DNA of 64,000 bases, taken from positions 40,340 through 104,339 of the forward strand of contig CAYMZD010000001.1 of NCBI GenBank assembly GCA_964394855.1, written 5' to 3'. The translations under genes were made by a program, and so were the position numbers. The notes beneath the pieces were generated by a model. That model worked only from the letters and a program-made list of their open reading frames with translations. It did not search any database and was not told the DNA's origin. Numbering within the stretch: the stretch's first letter is position 1; each line of letters opens with the position of its first letter. Positions 12,533-50,491 of the stretch are shown here, one piece after another. The DNA is from an uncultured Gammaproteobacteria bacterium (lineage in GTDB: Bacteria; Patescibacteriota; Microgenomatia; Daviesbacterales; UBA10151).

Positions 12533-12536
12533 ATGG

Positions 12537-12608
12537 AGCGGGCGATGGGACTCGCACCCACGACCTTCTCGTTGGCAACGAGACATTCTACTGCTGAACT
12601 ACGCCCGC
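12537..12608 (-). tRNA. tRNA-Gly (anticodon GCC)
   Basis: Acceptor GCGGGCG/CGCCCGC, anticodon stem TCTCG/CGAGA with loop TTGCCAA, discriminator U. Confidence 0.8.
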
Positions 12609-12626
12609 ACTGAGCATGTCGAAGTG

Positions 12627-12699
12627 TGCCGAAGCGGTGAATCGAACACCGATAAGACGCTCTTCAAGCGCCCGCCTTGACCACATTGGCAACTTCGGC
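12627..12699 (-). tRNA. tRNA-Phe (anticodon GAA)
   Basis: Acceptor GCCGAAG/CTTCGGC, anticodon loop TTGAAGA, T arm CGGTG-TTCGATT-CACCG, discriminator A. Confidence 0.8.
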
Positions 12700-12715
12700 T
12701 TGAGCATATTTTAAA

Positions 12716-12919
12716 CTATTTCCTGAAAAAATTAAAGAACATGGTTAAAATTACCGAAATGATAATTGAGGAAACCCAGGGGATGTAGACTTTTACACCT
12801 GGGCGATCAATATAAATATCCCCGGGGATTTTGGGTAACCCTCCCACTAAATTCCACAGCAACCCCAACAGTAGAAATACCACTCCCAAAAGCGTCAAAA
12901 TTTTACCAATATCTTCCAT
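12716..12919 (-). CDS. Small membrane protein, DUF2905-like
   Basis: 67 aa with two TM helices and an LPKIPGDIYIDRPGVKVYIP motif. Confidence 0.45.
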   Translation of the reverse strand: MEDIGKILTLLGVVFLLLGLLWNLVGGLPKIPGDIYIDRPGVKVYIPWVSSIIISVILTMFFNFFRK

Positions 12920-12989
12920 TAATAAATTATATCATGCCTGACTTGACATGGGTAATTTAGTTTCTTTATAATAATACTATACTACTATT

Positions 12990-13370
12990 ATGCCGACTGA
13001 TAATGAGGGGAGAGACAACGGAGCTGATCTACCTCTTCCAGAAACGGCCCCTGCACACAAAGCGCCTCCAATAAATGTCATAGCAGAGGATGATAGAACA
13101 ATCACCTTGCAATATCCCAATGGTGATCAAAGAAGAGTCAGTAAAGAGTGGCTTCAAGCAGAATTACAAAATAGACGGCCAATATTGGCGCAAACCAAAG
13201 GAGTTTTTGTTGTTCAAGAACTAGACGGTACTACCTCGGTAGTACCGAAGAAGCAGGAACTAAAACCAGCTGAAATCTATCCCGGGGAAATAGTGGCGGG
13301 ACAAACACCTACCCACTGGGTTATTGACTCTAACGGCTCTCAATTTCTTCAACCAAAACGTTTTTATTAA
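12990..13370 (+). CDS. Hypothetical protein
   Basis: ORF only. Confidence 0.35.
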   Translation: MPTDNEGRDNGADLPLPETAPAHKAPPINVIAEDDRTITLQYPNGDQRRVSKEWLQAELQNRRPILAQTKGVFVVQELDGTTSVVPKKQELKPAEIYPGEIVAGQTPTHWVIDSNGSQFLQPKRFY

Positions 13371-13372
13371 TA

Positions 13373-13449
13373 TGGTGGACTCGAGAGGACTTGAACCTCT
13401 GACCTTCTCGGTGTAAACGAGACGCTCTAGCCAACTGAGCTACGAGTCC
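13373..13449 (-). tRNA. tRNA-Val (anticodon TAC), CCA encoded
   Basis: GGACTCG acceptor, anticodon loop TTTACAC, T arm GAGG-TTCAAGT-CCTC, 3' CCA present. Confidence 0.85.
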
Positions 13450-13450
13450 T

Positions 13451-13536
13451 TGGTGCCGGGGACAGGACTTGAACCTGCACGCCTTTGGGGCACAGCCACC
13501 TCAAGGCTGCGTGTATACCAATTTCACCACCCCGGC
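13451..13536 (-). tRNA. tRNA-Leu (anticodon GAG), long variable arm, CCA encoded
   Basis: Acceptor GCCGGGG/CCCCGGC, anticodon stem CAGCC/GGCTG with loop TTGAGGT, long variable arm. Confidence 0.8.
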
Positions 13537-13585
13537 TTAGGTTTACCCCGAGCACTTCGGTACACTCAGTGTAAACTTGTCTAGG

Positions 13586-13670
13586 GGTGCCCAGGAGAGG
13601 AGTCGAACCTCCACGCCATTGCTGGCACTGGTTCCTGAAACCAGCCTGTCTACCATTCCAGCACCTGGGC
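13586..13670 (-). tRNA. tRNA-Leu (anticodon CAG), long variable arm
   Basis: Acceptor GCCCAGG/CCTGGGC, anticodon stem CTGGT/ACCAG with loop TTCAGGA, T arm GGAGG-TTCGACT-CCTC. Confidence 0.8.
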
Positions 13671-15376: not shown

Positions 15377-16666
15377 ATGAGATTACTCATCGCAATTCTA
15401 TTGGGAAAATTAATAGCCATCACTGTCCGAGGTTTTAGAATTGGTGGCGGTTCTGCTGCACCTGGACTTTGGGCCTTATTGATTGAACCTCATCTAGTTG
15501 AAAAGCTAATCAAGCAGATTCCCAAAAATGTGGTTATTACAGGCACCAATGGTAAAACCACCACAGCCAGAATATTGGCTCATTTGGCTAAAGAGGCAGG
15601 ATTAAAAGTTATCAGAAACCACACCGGCTCAAACTTGGAACGGGGCATTGCCTCTACACTAATTTCTAACTACCAGCTACTAACTACTAACTACCCACCT
15701 GATTTAGGGATTTGGGAACTGGATGAGGCGGCTTTTAACTCTGTTGTCCATAAAATCAAACCACAGGCGGTGGTTTTTTTGAATGTTTTCCGGGATCAAC
15801 TAGATAGATATGGCGAGATTGACACAGTGGTAAAAAATTGGTGTCAAACCCTGAAGTCTCTGAATAAAAAAACCGCGGTTTTAGTAAATGGTGATGATGC
15901 CAATACTTTGAAACTTCAGTCATGTTTTAAAGGCCAGGTGGAAACTTTTGGAGTGGAAGATTATAAAATTCATGGGGAAAACTTGGAACATAAAACCAAA
16001 AACTTGAAACTGGATTTTGAGGCTAAAGATGTTCTGGCAAATGGATTAAATAGCTTATCATTTCACATATCAAAATTTCTCGATCGAAGAAAAATGATAA
16101 ACATTTACGTAAAACTCCCTCTACCAGGATTTTATCATGTTTATGATGCCCTAGCTGCTATCGCTTCGGCCCATCTTTTGGGTTTCTCCACCCCTAAGTT
16201 AGTTAAGTCACTTAAGAATTTTTCTCCTGCTTTTGGCAGGGTGGAAAAATTACCATTTGGATTTATTTTTCTTATTAAAAATCCAGCCGGAGCAACCCAA
16301 GTTTTTGAAACAATTGCCCCAAATATCAAACAGGGAGATAGAGTTTTACTGGCTCTCAATGATAACTTGGCTGACGGAACAGATGTGTCTTGGATCTGGG
16401 ACAGCCAATTCGAACATCTTCCAAAGACTTATACTGTTGCATCAGGTAAAAGAGCCCATGATCTGGCTGTCCGCTTAAAATATGCCGGATTTGATCCTAA
16501 ACATATCCTAGTTGAACCTAACCTAAAAAAGGCTCTCAAAGAGGCTAGGACAGGCTTAAAAGGCCAGTTATTTATCTTACCTACTTATACTGCCATGCTG
16601 GAATTACAAGGTATTCTTGCCAAATCAGGCTTAAAGCCTCATTATTGGGAGGAAAACTTAAAATGA
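15377..16666 (+). CDS. murT: Lipid II isoglutaminyl synthase subunit MurT (Mur ligase central domain plus a DUF1727-like C-terminal domain)
   Basis: GTNGKTTT Mur-ligase P-loop. Sized and placed as the partner of the adjacent GatD homolog. Confidence 0.7.
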   Translation: MRLLIAILLGKLIAITVRGFRIGGGSAAPGLWALLIEPHLVEKLIKQIPKNVVITGTNGKTTTARILAHLAKEAGLKVIRNHTGSNLERGIASTLISNYQLLTTNYPPDLGIWELDEAAFNSVVHKIKPQAVVFLNVFRDQLDRYGEIDTVVKNWCQTLKSLNKKTAVLVNGDDANTLKLQSCFKGQVETFGVEDYKIHGENLEHKTKNLKLDFEAKDVLANGLNSLSFHISKFLDRRKMINIYVKLPLPGFYHVYDALAAIASAHLLGFSTPKLVKSLKNFSPAFGRVEKLPFGFIFLIKNPAGATQVFETIAPNIKQGDRVLLALNDNLADGTDVSWIWDSQFEHLPKTYTVASGKRAHDLAVRLKYAGFDPKHILVEPNLKKALKEARTGLKGQLFILPTYTAMLELQGILAKSGLKPHYWEENLK

Positions 16667-17391
16667 AGCTTATTATTGGTTATTTATATGGGAACTTAAT
16701 GAATATTTATGGAGACATGGGCAATATAATTGCTCTTAAAAAAAGGGCCCAGTGGAGAGGAATTGAGGTGAAAGTAGTTAATATTTCCTTAGGTGTCAAG
16801 CTATCCCACCCTCCAGGTGGGATAAAACCTGATATTTATTTTTTCGGAGGAGGGCAGGACCAGCAACAGGAAATAGTGGCAAATGATTTAAAAACAAAAG
16901 GTAAAATTATTAAGCAGGAGGTGGAAAGGGGAGTACCGCTTCTCTCGATTTGTGGAGGCTATCAACTGCTTGGAGAATACTATAAACCACACAAAGGACC
17001 AAAACTACCGGGCGTAGGACTATTTCCGGCTTATACCGCGGCCGGAGACAAAAGAATGATTGGCAATATTGTCATAGATTCTCAATTTGGAAAATTAGTC
17101 GGTTTTGAAAATCATTCAGGAAAAACATTTCTTAAAAAAGGAGCTCAATCTCTAGGGAAAGTAGTTAGGGGTTTTGGTAATAACGGAGAAGACCAAACAG
17201 AAGGCTGTATTTACAAAAATGCCATTGGCTGTTACATGCACGGCAGCTTACTTCCCAAAAATCCCCAGTTGGCTGACTGGCTACTACAAAAAGCCTTAGA
17301 AATTAAATATGGCCAGGAAATTGAGCTTCAACCCCTAGATGATATTTTAGAACTCCAAGCCCACCAAACAGCTATCAGCAAATTTGCTTGA
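16663..17391 (+). CDS. gatD: Lipid II isoglutaminyl synthase glutaminase subunit GatD (CobQ-type GATase)
   Basis: NLYGDMGNIIALKKRA, ICGGYQLLG, GFENHSGKT, GFGNN and YMHGSLLPKN segments parallel S. aureus GatD as recalled. Overlaps murT by 4 nt. Confidence 0.75.
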   Translation: MKLIIGYLYGNLMNIYGDMGNIIALKKRAQWRGIEVKVVNISLGVKLSHPPGGIKPDIYFFGGGQDQQQEIVANDLKTKGKIIKQEVERGVPLLSICGGYQLLGEYYKPHKGPKLPGVGLFPAYTAAGDKRMIGNIVIDSQFGKLVGFENHSGKTFLKKGAQSLGKVVRGFGNNGEDQTEGCIYKNAIGCYMHGSLLPKNPQLADWLLQKALEIKYGQEIELQPLDDILELQAHQTAISKFA

Positions 17392-17866: not shown

Positions 17867-17870
17867 AAAG

Positions 17871-17951
17871 TGCCCAGGAGAGGAGTCGAACCTCCACCCC
17901 TTGCGGGACATGGTCCTAAACCATGCGCGTCTGCCATTCCGCCACCTGGGC
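17871..17951 (-). tRNA. tRNA-Leu (anticodon TAG), long variable arm
   Basis: Acceptor GCCCAGG/CCTGGGC, anticodon stem CATGG/CCATG with loop TTTAGGA. The T arm is identical to that of tRNA-Leu(CAG). Confidence 0.8.
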
Positions 17952-18681: not shown

Positions 18682-18758
18682 GGACTCGTAGCTCAGTTGG
18701 CTAGAGCGACCCCTTGACGTGGGGTAGGTCAGAGGTTCAAGTCCTCTCGAGTCCACCA
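18682..18758 (+). tRNA. tRNA-Val (anticodon GAC), CCA encoded
   Basis: Same acceptor, D and T arms as tRNA-Val(TAC). Anticodon stem ACCCC/GGGGT with loop TTGACGT. Confidence 0.85.
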
Positions 18759-23344: not shown

Positions 23345-24391
23345 GTGGAAGAAAAAATTTCTCAAATTCAAAAAAAGTTTTTAGAAAAGATTAAAGTGGC
23401 CCAGACTCTAAAAGAGCTGGATGAAATTTTTCTTGGACTTTTTGGGAAAAAAGGAGAGTTAACACTGCTGCCCAGGGAATTTCCCAAATTATCAGACGAG
23501 CAGCGCCGTAGTGTTGGACCTTTATTTAATTCTGTAAAGCAAAATTTGGAAGAAGAAATAGAAAAACGAAGGCAAGAAATTAGAGAAGAGGGATACAAAA
23601 AACTGGAAACAGAAAAGTTTACGCTGCAACCCTTAAGGTTGCCAGTTAAAAAAAGAAAAGGATTGATTCACCCCCTTGATCAATTTGAACAGGAAATTGT
23701 GGAACTATTTGCCAAAATCGGTTTCCAGCAATTTAGCGATGCTCCGGAAATTGACACTGATGAATATAACTTTGAGCTTCTCAATATACCAAAGGATCAT
23801 CCTGCAAGAGATCTCCAAGATACTCTGTATATAGCTACAAAAACTCAACAAGGCAAAGTACTTCTTCGAACCCAAACTTCAAATTCACAAGTCAGGATTT
23901 TAAGAAAGTATAAACCGCCCATTAGAATGATGGTTTTGGGTAGATGTTTTAGACATGAAAATCTGGATGCCAGACATGAGCACACCTTTGATCAATTCGA
24001 ATTAGTTTATGTTGATAAAAATTTAAGCATGGCTAATCTACAATATCTTTCGGAGTATTTTTTAAGGCATTTTCTAGGCAAAGATATTAAAGTTCGACTG
24101 CGCCCAAAATATTATCCTTTTGTGGAACCTGGAGTTGGCATTGATGGCTTGTGTATTTTTTGTAAAGGTCAAGGTTGTAAAGTCTGTGGAGGAGTGGGTT
24201 GGTTGGAAGTAGGCGGAGCCGGTATGATTCATCCTCAAATTTTAAGAAACGGTGGAATTAATCCCGATGAATATACCGGCATTGCATGGGGACCGGGACT
24301 GGAGCGAATTTTAATGCTAATGCATGGGGTAAACGATTTAAGGCTTTTTAGAAACGGAAATTTAAAGTTTTTGGAGCAATTTAAAAAATGA
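23345..24391 (+). CDS. pheS: Phenylalanyl-tRNA synthetase alpha subunit
   Basis: PARDLQDTLY, FRHENLDARHEHTFDQFE and YYPFVEPG...GWLEVGGAGMIHP motifs. Carries a Cys4 (CxxC-x4-CxxC) knuckle. Confidence 0.85.
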   Translation: MEEKISQIQKKFLEKIKVAQTLKELDEIFLGLFGKKGELTLLPREFPKLSDEQRRSVGPLFNSVKQNLEEEIEKRRQEIREEGYKKLETEKFTLQPLRLPVKKRKGLIHPLDQFEQEIVELFAKIGFQQFSDAPEIDTDEYNFELLNIPKDHPARDLQDTLYIATKTQQGKVLLRTQTSNSQVRILRKYKPPIRMMVLGRCFRHENLDARHEHTFDQFELVYVDKNLSMANLQYLSEYFLRHFLGKDIKVRLRPKYYPFVEPGVGIDGLCIFCKGQGCKVCGGVGWLEVGGAGMIHPQILRNGGINPDEYTGIAWGPGLERILMLMHGVNDLRLFRNGNLKFLEQFKK

Positions 24392-26034
24392 AAGTAAGTA
24401 TTAGTTGGTTAAAAGAATTGGTTGATTTAAAAGTTCCTGTTGAAGAACTGATAAGACTTTTGCCTCTTCGGACTATTGGCACCAAAGAAATTACAGATGA
24501 TTTTATAGAGCTAGATATGAAAGGCTATAACAGGGCTGATTTACTTTCCATGAGAGGAGTGGCTAGGGAAGTCGTTGCGATAACAGATTCAAAATTAAAT
24601 CTTAATGATGAGAAAACTGATTTTCCCGGTTTGCCAACAGTAGATGTAGATGTGCAAGATAAAAACCTTTGTCCTGTTTACTGCGTAGCAGCAATCGAAA
24701 ACCTTAAAGTTGAACACTCAAATGAGACATGGGTAAAAAAGTTATCCGACTGTGGAATACGCTCCATTAATAATGTGGCTGATGTTACCAATTTAGTGAT
24801 GCTGGAATATGGTCAACCCTTGCATGCTTTTGATGCCAGGGGGGTAAAAGACCAGGCAATTATTGTCCGGACAGCCGAAAAAGGAGAGAGAATAACTACA
24901 TTAGACGGGAAAACACGGGATTTAGATATTAGTGATTTATTAATAACTGATTCACAAAGTGCTTTAGGTTTGGCCGGAGTGATGGGAGGAAAAGATTCGG
25001 AAGTTTCTGATTCAACCACCGCAATTTTACTGGAAGCGGCCATTTTTGACCCGGTGTCTATTAGAAGAACCGCCCAAAGACATGGGCTTCCGTCTGAAGC
25101 TGCTAAAAGATTCCAGCATGGACTGACTAAAACTAATTTACTGCAGGCTTTAGCAGCAGCCATCAAAATGTATGAAAGCTTGGGTGGAAAATTAACCGCT
25201 ATCACGCTTATTGGTGACCTTGAAGATAAACCAAAAACCGTTAACCTCACTCAAGCAAAAATTAATTCTTTAATTGGGGTGGAAATATCACCCGAGCAGG
25301 TTGAAGAATACTTAAAAAGAGTGGGTGCCAACGTATCCCACCTGGAGGGTGGGTTAGCTTGGCACATTCTACCCCCTTATTGGAGGTTGGATATAGAAAT
25401 TGAGGAGGATTTAATTGAGGAGGTAGCCAGGATGTACGGGTATGAGAAAATTCCACCGCGAGAACTAGAAGGAGAGCTGCCCGAAAAAATTGACCAAAGT
25501 TTACCTAATTTCATTTATGATCTTAAAAAAACTCTCGCTGATGTTGGTCTAACTGAAGTACAAACCTATTCATTTTATTCAACAGATGTACTGAATAATC
25601 TGGAATGGAATAAGGAAAACTTGGTCAAAGTGGCTAATCCCATCTCATCTGAAACGCAGTATTTAAGAGATAATCTTTGGCCTAATCTTTTAGAAGTTGT
25701 GGCCAAAAATATCAAAAATGGTTTTAGGGATGTGGCCATTTTTGAAATAGGAAAAGTTTACCAGCCCCAACAAGATGATTTACCAAAAGAAAATTACAGA
25801 TTGTCCATAGCCGTAATGAATGGAACCGATAATCCATTACAAGAATTAAATCAAATTTACCAAGGTGTGAAGCTAGCACACCTCCAGGGTGTGCAGATGA
25901 AGAAAGAATATTTCCACCCGGTGAGGTTTTCTCCACCCCTAGCCGAAGTTCATCCCAGAATGGTTAATAAATTTGGTACAGACCAGCGAGTGGCCATTTT
26001 AGAGGTGGATTTTAATTCAATGATAGCGGCGTGA
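24388..26034 (+). CDS. pheT: Phenylalanyl-tRNA synthetase beta subunit, domain-reduced (548 aa). It lacks the N-terminal OB-fold and the C-terminal FDX-ACB domains.
   Basis: B3/4 region with NRADLLSMRGVAREV, B5 region with PPYWRLDIEIEEDLIEEVARMYGY, core region with FEIGKVY and HPRM. Coupled to pheS by a 4-nt overlap. Confidence 0.8.
   Translation: MKVSISWLKELVDLKVPVEELIRLLPLRTIGTKEITDDFIELDMKGYNRADLLSMRGVAREVVAITDSKLNLNDEKTDFPGLPTVDVDVQDKNLCPVYCVAAIENLKVEHSNETWVKKLSDCGIRSINNVADVTNLVMLEYGQPLHAFDARGVKDQAIIVRTAEKGERITTLDGKTRDLDISDLLITDSQSALGLAGVMGGKDSEVSDSTTAILLEAAIFDPVSIRRTAQRHGLPSEAAKRFQHGLTKTNLLQALAAAIKMYESLGGKLTAITLIGDLEDKPKTVNLTQAKINSLIGVEISPEQVEEYLKRVGANVSHLEGGLAWHILPPYWRLDIEIEEDLIEEVARMYGYEKIPPRELEGELPEKIDQSLPNFIYDLKKTLADVGLTEVQTYSFYSTDVLNNLEWNKENLVKVANPISSETQYLRDNLWPNLLEVVAKNIKNGFRDVAIFEIGKVYQPQQDDLPKENYRLSIAVMNGTDNPLQELNQIYQGVKLAHLQGVQMKKEYFHPVRFSPPLAEVHPRMVNKFGTDQRVAILEVDFNSMIAA
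25864..25893. repeat. REP-like element copy inside the pheT CDS (GGTGTGAAGCTAGCACACCTCCAGGGTGTG)
   Basis: About 28/30 identity to the REP at 40332-40360. Its 17-mer core is identical to 38744-38760. Confidence 0.7.
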
Positions 26035-38743: not shown

Positions 38744-38760
38744 CACACCTCCAGGGTGTG
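38744..38760. repeat. REP-like hairpin (CACACCTCCAGGGTGTG)
   Basis: 6-bp stem CACACC/GGTGTG around a 5-nt loop. Same family as 39590, 40344 and 25877. Confidence 0.7.
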
Positions 38761-39571: not shown

Positions 39572-39589
39572 ACACACACCTTCATGTTG

Positions 39590-39606
39590 CACACATCCAA
39601 GGTGTG
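39590..39606. repeat. REP-like hairpin (CACACATCCAAGGTGTG) upstream of the RAYT gene
   Basis: Same motif family. Preceded by an additional CACACACC half-site at 39573-39580. Confidence 0.7.
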
Positions 39607-39647
39607 ATAGGTTGACACCTTAGTATTTTTACCATATTATTTTATTT

Positions 39648-40316
39648 ATGGCCTACAGAAAAACCCCAGTTGTAAATGGAGAGATATACCATGTTTACAA
39701 CAGAAGTAACGGACAACAAGAAATATTTTTATCCGCAAAAGATTATCAAAGAGCAATGGAAGTTTTTAGGTTCTACCTCTTTGGAAAACCATCTCTTCGC
39801 TTCTCCTTCTATAACCGTTTACCAAAAGACCAGAAACCTAAATACTTAGAAGGGTTATATTTAGGCAAGCCAATCGTAGATATAATCGGCTTTTGTTTAA
39901 TGCCTAATCATTTCCATTTTTTACTAAAGGGGCTGGAAGGAAAAGGAATAAATCAATTCATCAGCAATTTCCAAAATAGCTATGCCAAATATTTCAATAT
40001 TAAAATGACTCGTACTGGATCACTATTTCAGCAAAATTTTAGAGCTGTAAGAATTGAATCAGACGAACAACTTATTCACGTTTCCAGATACATTCATCTT
40101 AATCCTATTACAGCTTTTCTGGTTAGAACAATGGAGGAACTAGAACATTATCAATGGTCATCTTATCCTGATTATATACAAAGAGGGAAAACTTATATTA
40201 AAAAAGGTGTCGTTTTAGATCATTTTAGATCTATTGCAGATTATAAACAATTTATGGCCAACCAGATAGACTATCAAAGAAAATTAGACCGGATAAAGCA
40301 TTTACTAATGGAATAG
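39648..40316 (+). CDS. REP-associated tyrosine transposase (RAYT, IS200/IS605-like Y1 HUH transposase)
   Basis: GEIYHVYNRSNG beta-strand motif, MPNHFHFLL HUH motif, and RYIHLNPITAF...HYQWSSY carrying the catalytic Tyr. All parallel the RAYT/TnpA-REP family. Confidence 0.75.
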   Translation: MAYRKTPVVNGEIYHVYNRSNGQQEIFLSAKDYQRAMEVFRFYLFGKPSLRFSFYNRLPKDQKPKYLEGLYLGKPIVDIIGFCLMPNHFHFLLKGLEGKGINQFISNFQNSYAKYFNIKMTRTGSLFQQNFRAVRIESDEQLIHVSRYIHLNPITAFLVRTMEELEHYQWSSYPDYIQRGKTYIKKGVVLDHFRSIADYKQFMANQIDYQRKLDRIKHLLME

Positions 40317-40331
40317 TGCAGTTTTACTAGC

Positions 40332-40360
40332 GTGTGAACGTAGCACACATCCAAGGTGTG
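40332..40360. repeat. REP-like element (GTGTGAACGTAGCACACATCCAAGGTGTG) downstream of the RAYT gene
   Basis: Three-arm GTGTG/CACAC/GTGTG element, near-identical to the copy inside pheT. Confidence 0.7.
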
Positions 40361-47438: not shown

Positions 47439-48018
47439 AAACTCTACCTCCTTTTTCTATTATCACCTGTTTGGTGGAGGTTGTCTTGGTATTTTTTAAC
47501 TGAACTTGAAATTGATTACAAGTTTGATAAGTCACCCGGTCAATAGACGACTCAAAATAAATAGCATTAGTTAAAGGTTTAAAAATAACCGCCGCATATG
47601 AGGTAACATCAGTGGGGAAAGTATTTTCACAACCCGCACTGCCACTGTCAAAAATCTTTTCAATAATGATACTTGAGGGTAATTCATATTTATTGATCAC
47701 TGATTGAGTGAGCACAGCTCCATTGAAATAATAACAGTGGGTTTGAACTATATACTTGCCTTGCTGTTTATAAAAATCAATTTTCCATTGGTCAACAGGC
47801 TGATTAGCACATTTAAGATTAGTTGAAGCATTAGTTTGGGCTGTTCTTAAATTGCTCTGCAAATCTAACAGTGCATTATTTAGAGCTTGTTCCTCTCCAA
47901 AATTCCTAAAACTGGGAATGGCCACCACTCCCAGTATGGCTACCACTGAAATCACCACCAAAAGTTCAATTAGAGTAAAGGCATTCGGGGCAGCTTTGCC
48001 CATATTTCCATTGTACAT
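47428..48018 (-). CDS. Prepilin-type protein. The start was moved to MYNGNMGKAAPNAFTLIELL.
   Basis: NAFTLIELLVV class III signal. Confidence 0.6.
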   Translation of the reverse strand: MYNGNMGKAAPNAFTLIELLVVISVVAILGVVAIPSFRNFGEEQALNNALLDLQSNLRTAQTNASTNLKCANQPVDQWKIDFYKQQGKYIVQTHCYYFNGAVLTQSVINKYELPSSIIIEKIFDSGSAGCENTFPTDVTSYAAVIFKPLTNAIYFESSIDRVTYQTCNQFQVQLKNTKTTSTKQVIIEKGGRVYVQ

Positions 48019-48043
48019 TGTGCAAGTATCCATTGTACACTCC

Positions 48044-48544
48044 CTAGGGAGCTGTGACCGCCAGGTTATATCCTGCTGGTAAAGGAGAGGCGCAATTTGT
48101 CGGATTAGAAATCCCGGTAGGATTCTCCAGATTGGCATACAAACAATAGCCGTTACAGATTGTGATGTCATTATCGCAGCCAACACCAGAAGAAGAATTG
48201 TATGGCACATAGAGATATTGAGAATTTGAGGAAAGAGGATCGACCGGCACCCTGTTCATGTAAGTTTTAGCACCCACCGGATCTGTCAAGTTGCAGGGAC
48301 TGGTGGTATTAAAGGCCACTTTTCCGGCGCTACAGGTCCCACCGTTAAATAACGAATAATTAGATTGATCGTTATGATATTGTTCCAAGGCGGATTGGAT
48401 GGTTTTTAAATCAGATTGCCTCTTGGCATCTCGGCCCTGCCTCAAAACTGTTTGATAGGAAATAAATCCAATCACAGAAAGGATGGCAATAATACTGATG
48501 GCTACCAAAAGTTCAATTAGGGTAAAACCACCATTTTTACTCAC
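48044..48544 (-). CDS. Prepilin-type protein, probable GTG start giving a VSKNGGFTLIELL leader
   Basis: GGFTLIELLVAISIIAIL. The first ATG would give an atypical 24-aa leader. Confidence 0.6.
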   Translation of the reverse strand: MSKNGGFTLIELLVAISIIAILSVIGFISYQTVLRQGRDAKRQSDLKTIQSALEQYHNDQSNYSLFNGGTCSAGKVAFNTTSPCNLTDPVGAKTYMNRVPVDPLSSNSQYLYVPYNSSSGVGCDNDITICNGYCLYANLENPTGISNPTNCASPLPAGYNLAVTAP

Positions 48545-48548
48545 AGCT

Positions 48549-49013
48549 CTATTGTTGGTTGGCCTTGCAGTATGTTCCACCAGCTTCCAAGGTGGCACAA
48601 ATTATCCAGGTATTTTGGTTATATGGTGGTTGGCCAGGCCCCAGAGCAGTACCAGTAGAGTTATTACAAGTTCCACTAGCAGTCCAGCAATACCTGACAG
48701 AAGCAGCAGTCTGTGGATCTAGGGGTAGTGAACTATCAACAAACCAGTCTGGATTAGAACAATTATAACTATATGTGGGAAAGGGCGAGTTGGCACACAG
48801 GCCTGGATATTTCCCGACATCAAACTTACCATAATGAACTTCCATGGCTTTAGATATAGCATCAATATCTCCTCTCCTTTTGGCATCTCTGGCATTTTTT
48901 TGGACACCGCTAAATACGGTGATGCCAATCACAGAAAGAATGGCAATAATGGAAACTACGACTAACAGTTCAATCAGAGTAAAGCCCCTTGAAGTGGGCA
49001 GAAATTTTCTCAT
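48549..49013 (-). CDS. Prepilin-type protein
   Basis: SRGFTLIELLVVVSIIAIL. Confidence 0.7.
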   Translation of the reverse strand: MRKFLPTSRGFTLIELLVVVSIIAILSVIGITVFSGVQKNARDAKRRGDIDAISKAMEVHYGKFDVGKYPGLCANSPFPTYSYNCSNPDWFVDSSLPLDPQTAASVRYCWTASGTCNNSTGTALGPGQPPYNQNTWIICATLEAGGTYCKANQQ

Positions 49014-49060
49014 CTATAACTATTATTTAGGAAAAATTAATACTTTGTCAAGTGCCAATC

Positions 49061-49951
49061 CTAAAATATCAACTTAAGTATTTGGTTGCCCCAGAAAAGA
49101 ACCGTTAGCGAGCCCAATACTAAAAACGGCCCAAAGGGGATGGTTTGTCCAAAACTTTTTTTACCCATGATGACTAAACCAACCGCCACCACTGCTCCTG
49201 ATAAAAATGCCAAAAGAACTGCCAAAAGGGCTAAAGGAAAACCCAATCCCAGTCCTATAAAAGCCCCCAACTTCACATCACCCCCACCCATACCTTTTCC
49301 CCGGGTTAACATAATTAGCAGTAAAAAAAATCCAGCAATACCTATCCCTAAAAGAATCGACCAAAAGATAGGTTCTATAATCATGACTATATGCCTTTTT
49401 AGGTAATCGTTGTGAGGAGGCAAAAGAAACCTGCCCAGAGAATCACCCGCCAGATAGTAGTAGAGATACCAGATTTTATAAACAGTCACTGCTACCAATG
49501 AGGCAAAAGTGATAATAATAGCCGGTATCATCACTTTATCTGGAATAAGGTTTTTCTTTAAATCAGTCAAGGTGACTACTGCTAAAACAGTGATAAAATA
49601 TATTTTAAAGACTAGCTCATAGAAAAAAATGGTTAGTTTAAATTGATTACCAAGAGGTGGTGAGTTGGTCAAAGATTGTCCAAAAAGCATTGCTATTAAA
49701 AGGCCCAAAAATATCTCCACCCATAAATAGTTCACGCCTATTTTTTGGTGGCAAAAACGACATCTGCCTTTGAGCAAAACATAGGACAAAACAGGAAAAA
49801 GGTCGTACCACCTAATAGCATTCTTGCATTTAGGACAATACGACCTTCCTAAAAAAGATACTTTTTTTAGACTTCTCTCGGCCAAAGCTTGCGCTAAACT
49901 TCCTATGATACTACCTATAATAAATCCGAAAAAAAGCCAAAGTACTAACAC
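49061..49951 (-). CDS. pilD: Prepilin peptidase (A24 family) PilD
   Basis: N-terminal CPKCKN...CRFCHQ zinc-binding tetracysteine and polytopic membrane domain with GGGDVKL. Confidence 0.8.
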   Translation of the reverse strand: MLVLWLFFGFIIGSIIGSLAQALAERSLKKVSFLGRSYCPKCKNAIRWYDLFPVLSYVLLKGRCRFCHQKIGVNYLWVEIFLGLLIAMLFGQSLTNSPPLGNQFKLTIFFYELVFKIYFITVLAVVTLTDLKKNLIPDKVMIPAIIITFASLVAVTVYKIWYLYYYLAGDSLGRFLLPPHNDYLKRHIVMIIEPIFWSILLGIGIAGFFLLLIMLTRGKGMGGGDVKLGAFIGLGLGFPLALLAVLLAFLSGAVVAVGLVIMGKKSFGQTIPFGPFLVLGSLTVLFWGNQILKLIF

Positions 49952-49957
49952 TTAAAT

Positions 49958-50491
49958 TTAGTAAGCACACCCAGCCACTACTCCAATCAACTTGAGATTG
50001 GAACCGACTTCATACTTGGTATCATCATCACCGCCATCTTTAGTCATCTTATCTTTTTGTTGATCAGATTCCAAGATAGCATTGATTTCCCAAGCGTCAT
50101 TATCGGCACAATAAGCATAATGAGCGGTAGCATCATTAGTTGGATCAGCTGGTAGGGTTGGTACCGAAACGCTCTTTTGGCTACCTAAATTCACCTTCAC
50201 CCATCCTGTACCATCAGATGGTCTAGAGTTTGCATCCGAACTCTTCCCAGAGCAGGGATAGGCTGCTCCACTACATAAGATTGCGCCACCGGAGGTAGTT
50301 GCCTCTTGGACAGCCACATTGATGGCTTGTTGCAAATTAGCTAAATCAGTTAACCTTGCAGAGTCACGACCACGCCGAGTTAACTCGAGCGGGTTAATAA
50401 TAAGTACTACTACTGCTGCCAAAATAGCGATGATAGCTATCACCACCAAAAGTTCTACTAAAGTGAAACCACGGGCAGATTTTCTAGTCAA
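49958..50491 (-). CDS. Prepilin-type protein (candidate major pilin)
   Basis: SARGFTLVELLVVIAIIAILAAV. Its position beside pilC and pilD suggests the major subunit. Confidence 0.65.
   Translation of the reverse strand: MTRKSARGFTLVELLVVIAIIAILAAVVVLIINPLELTRRGRDSARLTDLANLQQAINVAVQEATTSGGAILCSGAAYPCSGKSSDANSRPSDGTGWVKVNLGSQKSVSVPTLPADPTNDATAHYAYCADNDAWEINAILESDQQKDKMTKDGGDDDTKYEVGSNLKLIGVVAGCAY

Follow-up and report, generated by a model that had tools for sequence, protein, structure and literature searches.

To our knowledge, studies of REP sequences and their RAYT transposases have dealt almost exclusively with Proteobacteria, and REPs are regarded as intergenic. The repeat family analysed here resembles the REP/REPIN-RAYT systems of Pseudomonas and Escherichia coli (Nunvar 2010, Bertels & Rainey 2011, Di Nocera 2013) in the conserved tag that adjoins the stem of a short imperfect palindrome, in the mainly intergenic position of its apparently dispersed copies, in having one Y1/HUH gene with inverted flanking copies and in forming occasional dimers (at site A and in genome L008, see below). 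Intragenic REPs are known from Opitutus terrae and others and from tRNA synthetase genes of X. oryzae, E. litoralis and S. alaskensis, and these REPs, single or dimeric and in frame in presumably functional genes, have been read as neutral decorations of modular proteins (PMC3733652). The same article cites in-frame RPEs in Rickettsia conorii (Ogata et al. 2000). In the literature that we searched, no description of REP/RAYT in CPR bacteria was found. In the family reported here, one conserved head is common to several CPR lineages and some copies are read in frame in essential genes.

We analysed a 64-kb stretch of DNA (the window) and located six copies of the repeat, compared with ∼0.1 expected (Table 1). 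Two degenerate core patterns, CACCYNNNRGGTG and CACAC-N7-GTGTG, recover all six and occur four times each (0.10 and 0.02 occurrences expected, respectively, from shuffled controls). The initial annotation had missed two of these copies, one in a gatD-like gene and one, here called site A, in pheT. A second pheT copy, site B, is probably a RAYT-associated REP that now forms part of the pheT coding sequence and is tolerated in a loop of the protein.

Table 1. Coordinates of the REP copies and associated genes in the window
Feature	Position	Strand	Remarks
REP copy in gatD-like glutamine amidotransferase gene (ORF 16645..17391)	16792..16824	+	In frame, GVKLSHPPGGI
pheT, phenylalanyl-tRNA synthetase beta subunit, 548 aa	24388..26034	+	Intact host gene
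REP copy, site A	25324..25366	.	Inside pheT; 41-nt imperfect palindrome GGTGCCAACGTA-TCCCACC-TGGAG-GGTGGGT-TAGCTTGGCAC; predicted peptide GANVSHLEGGLAWH
REP copy, site B	25864-25893 (30 nt; hairpin to 25894)	+	Inside pheT; predicted peptide GVKLAHLQGV
Site B head	25864-25875	+	GGTGTGAAGCTA
Site B hairpin	25876-25894	+	GCACACC-TCCAG-GGTGTGC
Intergenic REP hairpin	38744..38760	.	CACACCTCCAGGGTGTG, same as site B hairpin
REP copy upstream of RAYT	39584..39619	-	Head GGTGTCAACCTA facing gene; hairpin CACAC-ATCCAAG-GTGTG
RAYT-type Y1 (HUH) transposase gene, 222 aa	39648..40316	+	Pfam Y1_Tnp
REP copy downstream of RAYT	40331..40360	+	25/30 identical to site B; comparison copy of the initial annotation

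The RAYT gene lies between two inverted REP copies, whose heads point toward the gene. Its product matches Pfam Y1_Tnp with 33.6 bits (cut-off 23), and its sole NCBIfam match is NF047646 (REP_Tyr_transpos, 51 bits), below the curated cut-off of 80. The translation contains MPNHFHFLL (HFH) and SRYIHLNP (YIHLNP), which we take to be the HUH and catalytic-tyrosine motifs of the Y1 family. Rfam at gathering thresholds returned only ten tRNAs in the window, and the REP motif is not a curated RNA family.

A window search places the site B 30-mer GGTGTGAAGCTAGCACACCTCCAGGGTGTG on the plus strand, where the reading frame of pheT gives (Q)GVKLAHLQGV(Q), the core GVKLAHLQGV corresponding to PheT residues 493–502. 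The palindrome has a 7-bp stem and a 5-nt loop (single-stranded DNA fold −8.5 kcal/mol, z −2.4). Location and in-frame translation thus agree with the initial annotation, whereas the reported 93% identity with the REP downstream of RAYT does not hold: this copy (CGTGTGAACGTAGCACACATCCAAGGTGTG) is the best match of site B, with 25 of 30 positions identical in an ungapped comparison (83%). Because the nearest copy is only 83% identical, a search of the 64-kb window with the full 30-mer and up to three mismatches returned site B alone and no second copy. The site B hairpin is identical over 17 of 17 nt with the intergenic copy, and the head together with the first stem arm shows three mismatches to 16792–16810 and three to 39601–39619. 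Searching with head and first arm yields three matches in the window, compared with 0.01 expected from shuffled controls. This similarity is far above chance and bears out the earlier proposal that site B is a genuine member of the RAYT-associated repeat family.

We scanned species genomes by the motif alone, RAYT genes not being used in the selection, and found at least 130 strict copies in at least 119 DNA stretches, nearly all of them from Microgenomates. Two parts define the family, a 12-nt head (GGTG-YS-AAGCTA) and, after it, a short hairpin (CACCY-NNN-RGGTG) whose outer stem pairs vary; one head is common to several class-level Microgenomates lineages. The head stands in for the GTAG (or CGTC) tag usual in REPs. 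Only the copy downstream of RAYT has GTAG beside the stem; in the family, AAGCTA-N precedes the stem, where N is A in 52, G in 35, T in 33 and C in 6 of 126 copies. Stem pairs left free by the search pattern covary (z 4–5.6, 132 distinct copies). Among the matches listed, related genomes contain up to 8 strict copies, a full-length RAYT homologue (38–62% identity) lies beside the motif in 27 stretches and partial RAYT matches are found in three further stretches. The arrangement is alike in 26 of the 27, with a copy 38–75 nt upstream on the minus strand and/or 9–78 nt downstream on the plus strand; the exception is L097, whose upstream copy is plus-oriented. Many motif-bearing metagenome-assembled genomes are labelled “Gammaproteobacteria,” a label that we checked and judge doubtful. 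We also considered DNA uptake sequences and set this reading aside: uptake sequences of known systems have a density of about one per kb, whereas we find about one copy per 10 kb in the window and a tight association with RAYT genes.

About one in eight of the strict copies among the matches listed (∼12%) are located inside genes. Of the 130 strict copies listed, 111 lie outside long ORFs or at uncertain 5' ends of ORFs and 19 lie in long ORFs; subtracting two chance matches in non-CPR genomes and one ambiguous copy that flanks a RAYT gene leaves 16 intragenic copies. In 15 of these 16, CAC is a codon, and the frame CAC-CNN-NNN-GGT-G causes the hairpin to be read as an H-(P/L)-x-G-(G/V) turn, which speaks for selection on the peptide. 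The host genes include those for a class II aminoacyl-tRNA synthetase, MurD (at two different sites), MurG, a GatA-type amidase, TGT, a peptidase M1 and a GT2 protein, and the copies map mostly to linkers and loops, some of them between Pfam domains. In MurD, the REP-coded HLRGV stands where HLAGK is native, immediately ahead of the HNxxN motif. Such a replacement is not predicted by plain cut-and-paste followed by drift, and counts against the explanation that we favor.

PheT contains the Pfam domains B3_4, B5 and tRNA_synthFbeta (PheT catalytic-like, CLM), and Foldseek aligns its AF2 model (pLDDT 86) with experimental structures of bacterial PheRS beta chains (2rhs_B, 6oz5 and 1pys_B) at E values of ∼1e-46. 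Pfam finds neither the N-terminal tRNA-binding domain nor a C-terminal domain in PheT. A C-terminal domain of ∼100 aa is found in other CPR PheTs of ∼670 aa and is absent throughout the Daviesbacteria-type group, and the 120 closest PheTs (531–607 aa) have the same three domains, with or without the repeat. The initial annotation had also noted a “domain-reduced” PheT of 548 aa, but this size is normal for the clade and unconnected with the REP, and repeat-free orthologues share the architecture. We considered the REP as the cause of the C-terminal domain loss and ruled this out, REP-free orthologues being built alike. The enzyme looks intact, its short architecture is a clade trait and nothing unusual is implied for pheT itself. 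An error of assembly or binning would be conceivable for a metagenome-assembled genome of an uncultured Daviesbacteria organism, but we regard it as the least probable of all readings, as the pheT frame is unbroken, a 100% identical Daviesbacteria PheT is recorded at NCBI, and the element is found at the same codons in independent assemblies from other samples.

In the AF2 model, site B corresponds to the loop that follows helix 483–493 (pLDDT 66–75), ∼45 residues before the C terminus. Site A maps to the tip of a β-hairpin of the B5 domain (strands 315–318 and 324–328), in a segment that exceeds its counterpart in solved PheTs by just 2 aa. We counted site A as a REP dimer: its full head is on the minus strand, where GTGCC replaces GTGTC, so that a TGG codon appears where TGA would stand. 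The site A fold is −13.3 kcal/mol (z −3.85).

REP-type peptides are present at these two PheT loops in 23 and 41% of the 120 Daviesbacteria-type orthologues, with patchy spread and local turnover; a neighbor-joining tree of these proteins is too coarse for counting gains and losses. Both sites coincide with the two most length-variable regions of the 120 orthologues (13–37 and 19–53 aa, measured over chosen alignment column ranges). We searched for a clean empty site that would mark an insertion junction at the pheT sites and in the MurD pair L055/L059, and found none. At site A, P0008 and P0034 resemble native sequence plus element, whereas the window and P0002 resemble an element with a native part deleted. 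In the MurD pair, as at site B, the element has taken the place of some native residues. The site B loop is hypervariable and its total length is not above that of the outgroups, so the REP-mediated remodelling of the pheT 3' region suggested by the initial annotation is upheld at the level of the loop only, and not as a clean 10-codon insertion.

For the peptide GVKL, the codons GGT GTS AAG CTA would be chosen with P = 0.004 given the codon usage of this genome. Four species nevertheless have precisely these codons, and in a fifth a single base is different (AAT). The initial annotation took orthologues with the same peptide and the same codons to mean chance similarity. Such orthologues exist, yet chance is not implied: because the 12-nt head and the hairpin also flank RAYT genes elsewhere, and because the codons are improbable, the orthologues share the element rather than a coincidence. 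That native pheT sequence merely resembles a REP, by chance or as a conserved PheT peptide, would agree with GVKLxHxxGV being encoded at the same place in orthologues, with L-G-[VI]-x-x-[VF]-x-F, a motif of outgroup PheTs at site B that bears a loose resemblance to it, and with the outgroup-like loop length. We consider this very improbable, as the window has head and hairpin again within gatD, between genes and to either side of RAYT, the many strict copies elsewhere often lie beside RAYT genes, shuffled controls give only 0.01–0.1 expected matches, the codon choice is so unlikely for the peptide, and the majority of the 120 orthologues do not have the peptide.

At synonymous positions, codon identity amounts to 0.75 at site B (five species) and 0.71 at site A (four species), compared with 0.49 in the rest of pheT. 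Among sliding windows along pheT, site B ranks in the top 2% and site A above all others. As the species compared share only ∼65% protein identity, an old neutral insertion should no longer show such codon identity, which counts against a tolerated insertion. Alternatively, an effect at the nucleic-acid level could be preserving the intragenic copies or renewing them time and again. In one version of this reading, a DNA or mRNA hairpin would be selected, for example for binding of RAYT or a host factor or for a translation pause; in the other, RAYT activity or gene conversion would overwrite REP sites with the current variant of the genome (homing). Besides the synonymous-site conservation and the exact recurrence of improbable codons, several comparisons point in this direction. 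Site A is closer to the gatD copy of its own genome (94% complementary over 32 nt) than to orthologous site A copies (74–86% identity over 42 nt). Genome L008 carries one REP dimer at both pheT loops; in its sister L006, whose PheT is 88% identical, only site A has the dimer and site B has another hairpin. In gatD, L003 and L008 carry different hairpins at the place occupied in the window, so that three genomes have three hairpins at a single site; the loop of the gatD-like product exceeds those of L006, L007 and probably S. aureus GatD by 4–5 aa. We still think selection or renewal at this level unlikely: many close relatives retain the gene with decayed copies (L004, P0050, P0037 and P0095) or with none (P0004; in P0003 a hairpin without head), the host proteins are unrelated, folding of the hairpins as DNA is weak (−6 to −13 kcal/mol), and equal codon identity would result if a conserved consensus had recently and independently entered the few permissive loops. 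It is likewise only a tentative proposal that Microgenomates REPs are repeatedly written into, and overwritten in, the same loops of essential enzymes, always in the one frame that yields an H-(P/L)-x-G-G turn and with synonymous sites held. If this were true, REPs would home to REP hairpins in coding DNA, or an intragenic DNA or RNA hairpin would be under selection, and a transposase-linked repeat would be a standing supply of protein loop variation in very small genomes.

The most likely explanation for the site B REP is thus tolerated selfish DNA. The copy may have arrived by RAYT-mediated, IS200/IS605-like single-strand transposition or by conversion from another copy. It would have been retained in pheT because the loop tolerates change and because the frame yields a harmless, turn-forming peptide; neighboring residues were probably trimmed, so that loop length stayed about constant. 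The REP would have no dedicated function in PheRS and would not be the cause of the short protein. Since intragenic REPs were already described in 2013, the pheT case is an event of a known kind. Counted against this explanation are the lack of a clean insertion at either pheT site and a RAYT score below the NCBIfam cut-off. When CPR proteins are aligned or placed in gene-based phylogenies, REP-derived segments can be misleading, and REPs account for some lineage-specific loop “insertions.” Different REP variants in the same loops of close relatives provide a natural system in which to ask whether REPs target existing REPs.

Compared with known REP/REPIN-RAYT systems, a 12-nt head with CTA-N at its end takes the place of the GTAG tetranucleotide as tag, the head spans class-level Microgenomates lineages rather than one species or genus, copy number seems modest (up to 8 strict copies per genome among the matches listed), and a sizeable fraction of the copies (∼12% among the matches listed) are intragenic. 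As in the intragenic REPs of PMC3733652, REPs and dimers are found in frame in known genes; here, however, REP-type peptides recur in two loops of one essential gene (among 120 orthologues, in 23 and 41%), almost all intragenic copies share one frame, and sister genomes can differ in the variant. Descriptions of loop reuse, a near-fixed frame or variant switching were not found in PMC3733652. Like Rickettsia palindromic elements, our REPs are palindromic and probably selfish DNA in frame within genes of a reduced genome, and the host gene is intact, with site B in a low-pLDDT loop and site A at a hairpin tip of the predicted model. RPE-coded peptides are located on protein surfaces. RPE-1 is, as far as we know, ∼100–150 bp long with no known dedicated transposase; in contrast, the units described here are 30–33 nt long and linked to RAYT.

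The plus-strand segment at 25864–25893 (GGTGTGAAGCTAGCACACCTCCAGGGTGTG) is a genuine in-frame copy of a REP, a small palindromic repeat, and is one of two within pheT. As the initial annotation had stated, it is translated as GVKLAHLQGV, residues 493–502. The copy comprises a 12-nt head (GGTGTGAAGCTA) and a hairpin (GCACACC-TCCAG-GGTGTGC) that folds as single-stranded DNA with −8.5 kcal/mol (z −2.4). Its assignment to a REP family holds, as the window contains six family copies against 0.01–0.1 matches expected per pattern in shuffled controls. The 93% identity reported to the copy downstream of the REP-associated Y1 transposase (RAYT) gene amounts to 25 of 30 positions (83%), and a window search with the full 30-mer allowing three mismatches returned no second copy. 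No Rfam family covers the motif. Comparing head and stem (e.g. 25864–25867 and 25879–25882), we noted that the first four bases of the head, GGTG, also occur as those of the 3′ stem arm, and CACC could therefore pair upstream or downstream, giving two alternative hairpins.

REP copies in the window and the genes they lie in or flank
Feature	Position	Strand	Remarks
REP copy in gatD	16792-16824	+	in frame in gatD-like amidotransferase gene; encodes GVKLSHPPGGI
pheT ORF	24388..26034	+	548-aa protein; Pfam B3_4, B5 and PheT catalytic-like domains
REP copy, site A	25324-25366		41-nt imperfect palindrome in pheT; encodes GANVSHLEGGLAWH
REP copy, site B	25864-25894	+	inside pheT; the copy under study
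REP hairpin	38744-38760		intergenic; 17/17 identical to site B hairpin
REP copy	39584-39619	-	upstream side of RAYT gene
RAYT gene	39648..40316		
REP copy	40331-40360	+	downstream side of RAYT gene

Elsewhere in the window, five tRNA genes (Gly, Phe, Val, Leu, and Leu) form a cluster (tRNA features at 12534–13670, 17870–17951, and 18682–18758). Two tRNA-Val genes (anticodons tac and gac) are inverted, about 5 kb apart, and 88% complementary. Four neighboring genes at 47921–50470 (minus strand) have in common a 62-nt segment (61–77% identity, repeat family D1), which, judged by eye, codes for a hydrophobic N terminus like those of type IV pilins or pseudopilins.

The RAYT ORF has a Pfam Y1_Tnp match above threshold and contains HFH and YIHLNP motifs; its sole NCBIfam match, REP_Tyr_transpos, scores below the model cut-off. 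The REP copies on either side of the gene are inverted, with their heads toward it. We scanned one genome per species with the pattern GTGYSAAGCTANNNCACCNNNNNGGTG, for which about one chance match is estimated in the whole genome collection, and retrieved at least 119 DNA stretches on the motif alone, without use of RAYT. Among the matches listed, nearly all are Microgenomates (Davies-, Levy-, Gottesman-, Shapiro-, Woese-, and Blackburnbacteria). A full-length homolog of the window RAYT (38–62% identity) is present in 27 of these at least 119 stretches, and partial matches are found in three more. With the sole exception of L097, all 27 have a copy 38–75 nt upstream (minus) and/or 9–78 nt downstream (plus) of the gene (26/27), and inverted copies around the RAYT gene are what defines a REP-RAYT unit. 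Positions left free by the pattern are also constrained: the base ahead of GTG is G in 114 of 126 distinct copies, and stem positions covary (z 4–5.6, 126–132 distinct copies). In one Shapirobacteria genome (stretches L046, with two copies, and L087), copies with the same head have the loop either way round (CTCCA or TGGAG), suggesting hairpin flips in which the head takes no part. REP and RAYT are also carried by many MAGs of 35–42% GC titled “uncultured Gammaproteobacteria bacterium (binchicken...)” (L010, L016–L018, L021, L054, L055, and many others). The MurD of L055 shares 56% identity with a Daviesbacteria MurD, and the Gammaproteobacteria label on these MAGs is probably wrong.

The motif-selected stretches hold 130 strict copies, 19 of them well within long ORFs. 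Two of the 19 are chance matches outside the CPR, and one that flanks a RAYT gene is ambiguous; the other 16 (about 12% of the 130) are intragenic. Their hosts are ordinary housekeeping proteins, namely a class II aaRS (copy within the OB domain), MurD (two different sites), MurG, a GatA-type amidase, TGT, peptidase M1, and a two-domain GT2, and the copies mostly occupy linkers or loops. The frame CAC-CNN-NNN-GGT-G, encoding H-(P/L)-x-G-(G/V), is used for the hairpin in 15 of these 16 copies and, as the hairpin is palindromic, applies whichever way the element lies. The forward-orientation element is open in all three frames. Most matches in the remaining frames fall at the 5′ ends of ORFs, where translation probably starts only after the element. 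A reversed GTGTC head would read as a TGA stop, and reverse copies instead have GTGCC (or GTGTG), giving TGG or TCA. The near-exclusive frame and the stop-avoiding reverse heads thus indicate that survival of insertions is filtered by selection on the encoded peptide.

The window PheT is 100% identical to the NCBI-recorded PheT of a Candidatus Daviesbacteria bacterium, and its AlphaFold model (pLDDT 86) matches solved bacterial PheRS β chains (E about 1e-46). The 120 closest PheTs (58–70% identity) have 531–607 aa and the same three domains, and 548 aa is thus a normal length for the clade. Other CPR PheTs (about 670 aa) contain an additional C-terminal domain of about 100 aa, which is missing from all Daviesbacteria-type PheTs in our alignment, REP or no REP. 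The window protein ends about 45 residues past the REP. The proposed tie between the REP and a domain-reduced PheT is not borne out, since length and domains are the same in the clade with or without REPs, and the REP is unconnected with the short architecture. A subset of Daviesbacteria-type PheTs, the window's included, is also short of about 10 residues following the FHPxR motif.

The REP-coded peptides of sites A and B fall in the two segments whose length varies most in the 120-PheT alignment (13–37 and 19–53 aa over the column ranges analyzed). REP-type peptides occur in 28/120 orthologs at site A and 49/120 at site B, as single units, dimers, or bare hairpin cores, with more than one junction per loop. 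Their states are patchy on a rough tree: the window's clade includes empty and decayed as well as full versions, with no head in its nearest relatives (P0003–P0005). The site B head (GGT GTS AAG CTA) and CAC...GGTGTG hairpin use the same codons in the window and in the related stretches L001, L002, and L005, and L003 is one base off (AAT for AAG). In L002:6199-6250, the 3′ stem arm is duplicated in tandem after the site B copy, with a 12-nt unit (AGGGGTGTGAGT twice, yielding RGVSRGVS). Site A, which the initial annotation did not report, is kept in reverse orientation at the DNA level in the window, L001, L002, and L004. Its peptide forms the tip of a B5-domain β-hairpin in the AlphaFold model (strand 315–318, turn, strand 324–328), an ordinary hairpin just 2 aa longer than in solved PheTs, and the site B loop has no extra length compared with outgroup PheTs. 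The orthologs P0008 and P0034 look like native loop plus element, and the window PheT and P0002 like element with the native part gone. Two MurD orthologs (L059:5653-7032 and L055:439-1827) carry one REP each, at different sites. In the L059 protein, REP-coded HLRGV stands exactly in place of the native HLAGK of L055, ahead of a conserved HNxxN motif; this element took the place of look-alike native residues and is not a simple addition. REP-mediated remodeling, as suggested for the pheT 3′ region, is therefore a fair description of a loop but not of the 3′ region or the domains, given a gain of just 2 aa at site A, no gain in loop length at site B, and partial replacement of native residues by the element.

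At synonymous positions, codon identity reaches 0.75 at site B and 0.71 at site A, compared with 0.49 in the rest of pheT; among sliding windows, site B ranks in the top 2% and site A above all. Given GVKL, the probability of the observed codons is 0.004 under this genome's codon usage. REP copies within a genome can be more alike than orthologous ones: window site A is 94% identical to the window gatD copy over 32 nt, and 74–86% identical to site A of other species over 42 nt. A simple neutral-passenger picture does not explain the synonymous conservation, codon choice, and within-genome likeness. The pheT of L008 (L008:10001-11701) contains one two-hairpin dimer, CACCTCGAAGGTG-AAAAAATGCRATTA-CACCTYSGAGGTGG, at both variable loops. 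Its sister L006 (L006:10001-11698, PheT 88% identical) has the dimer at site A only and another hairpin at site B, a block that is one of few divergent patches between the two proteins; here a REP site has recently undergone a local replacement. In gatD, three genomes have three different hairpins at one position (those of L003 and L008 being other than the window's), and L006 and L007 have none. These observations would fit three mechanisms. New copies made from a conserved consensus may repeatedly land in the few tolerant loops, resident REPs may attract new REPs or undergo conversion by them, or selection may act on the hairpin itself.

Intragenic REPs, including some in tRNA synthetase genes, have been described and read as neutral decorations by Di Nocera et al. 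2013 (PMC3733652), who also mention the in-frame RPEs of Rickettsia; events of this kind are thus already known. The most likely reading of the pheT copy is selfish DNA that a permissive loop tolerates, and site re-use and synonymous-site conservation would be of more interest if homing or selection were true. Among the papers listed in a literature search, none combined “candidate phyla radiation” with “RAYT”. Compared with the REPs in PMC3733652, where we did not find these features described, the present family resides in a CPR host group, has a 12-nt head, not GTAG, that is common to class-level lineages, keeps a near-exclusive reading frame within genes, and re-uses the same loops with turnover of variants.
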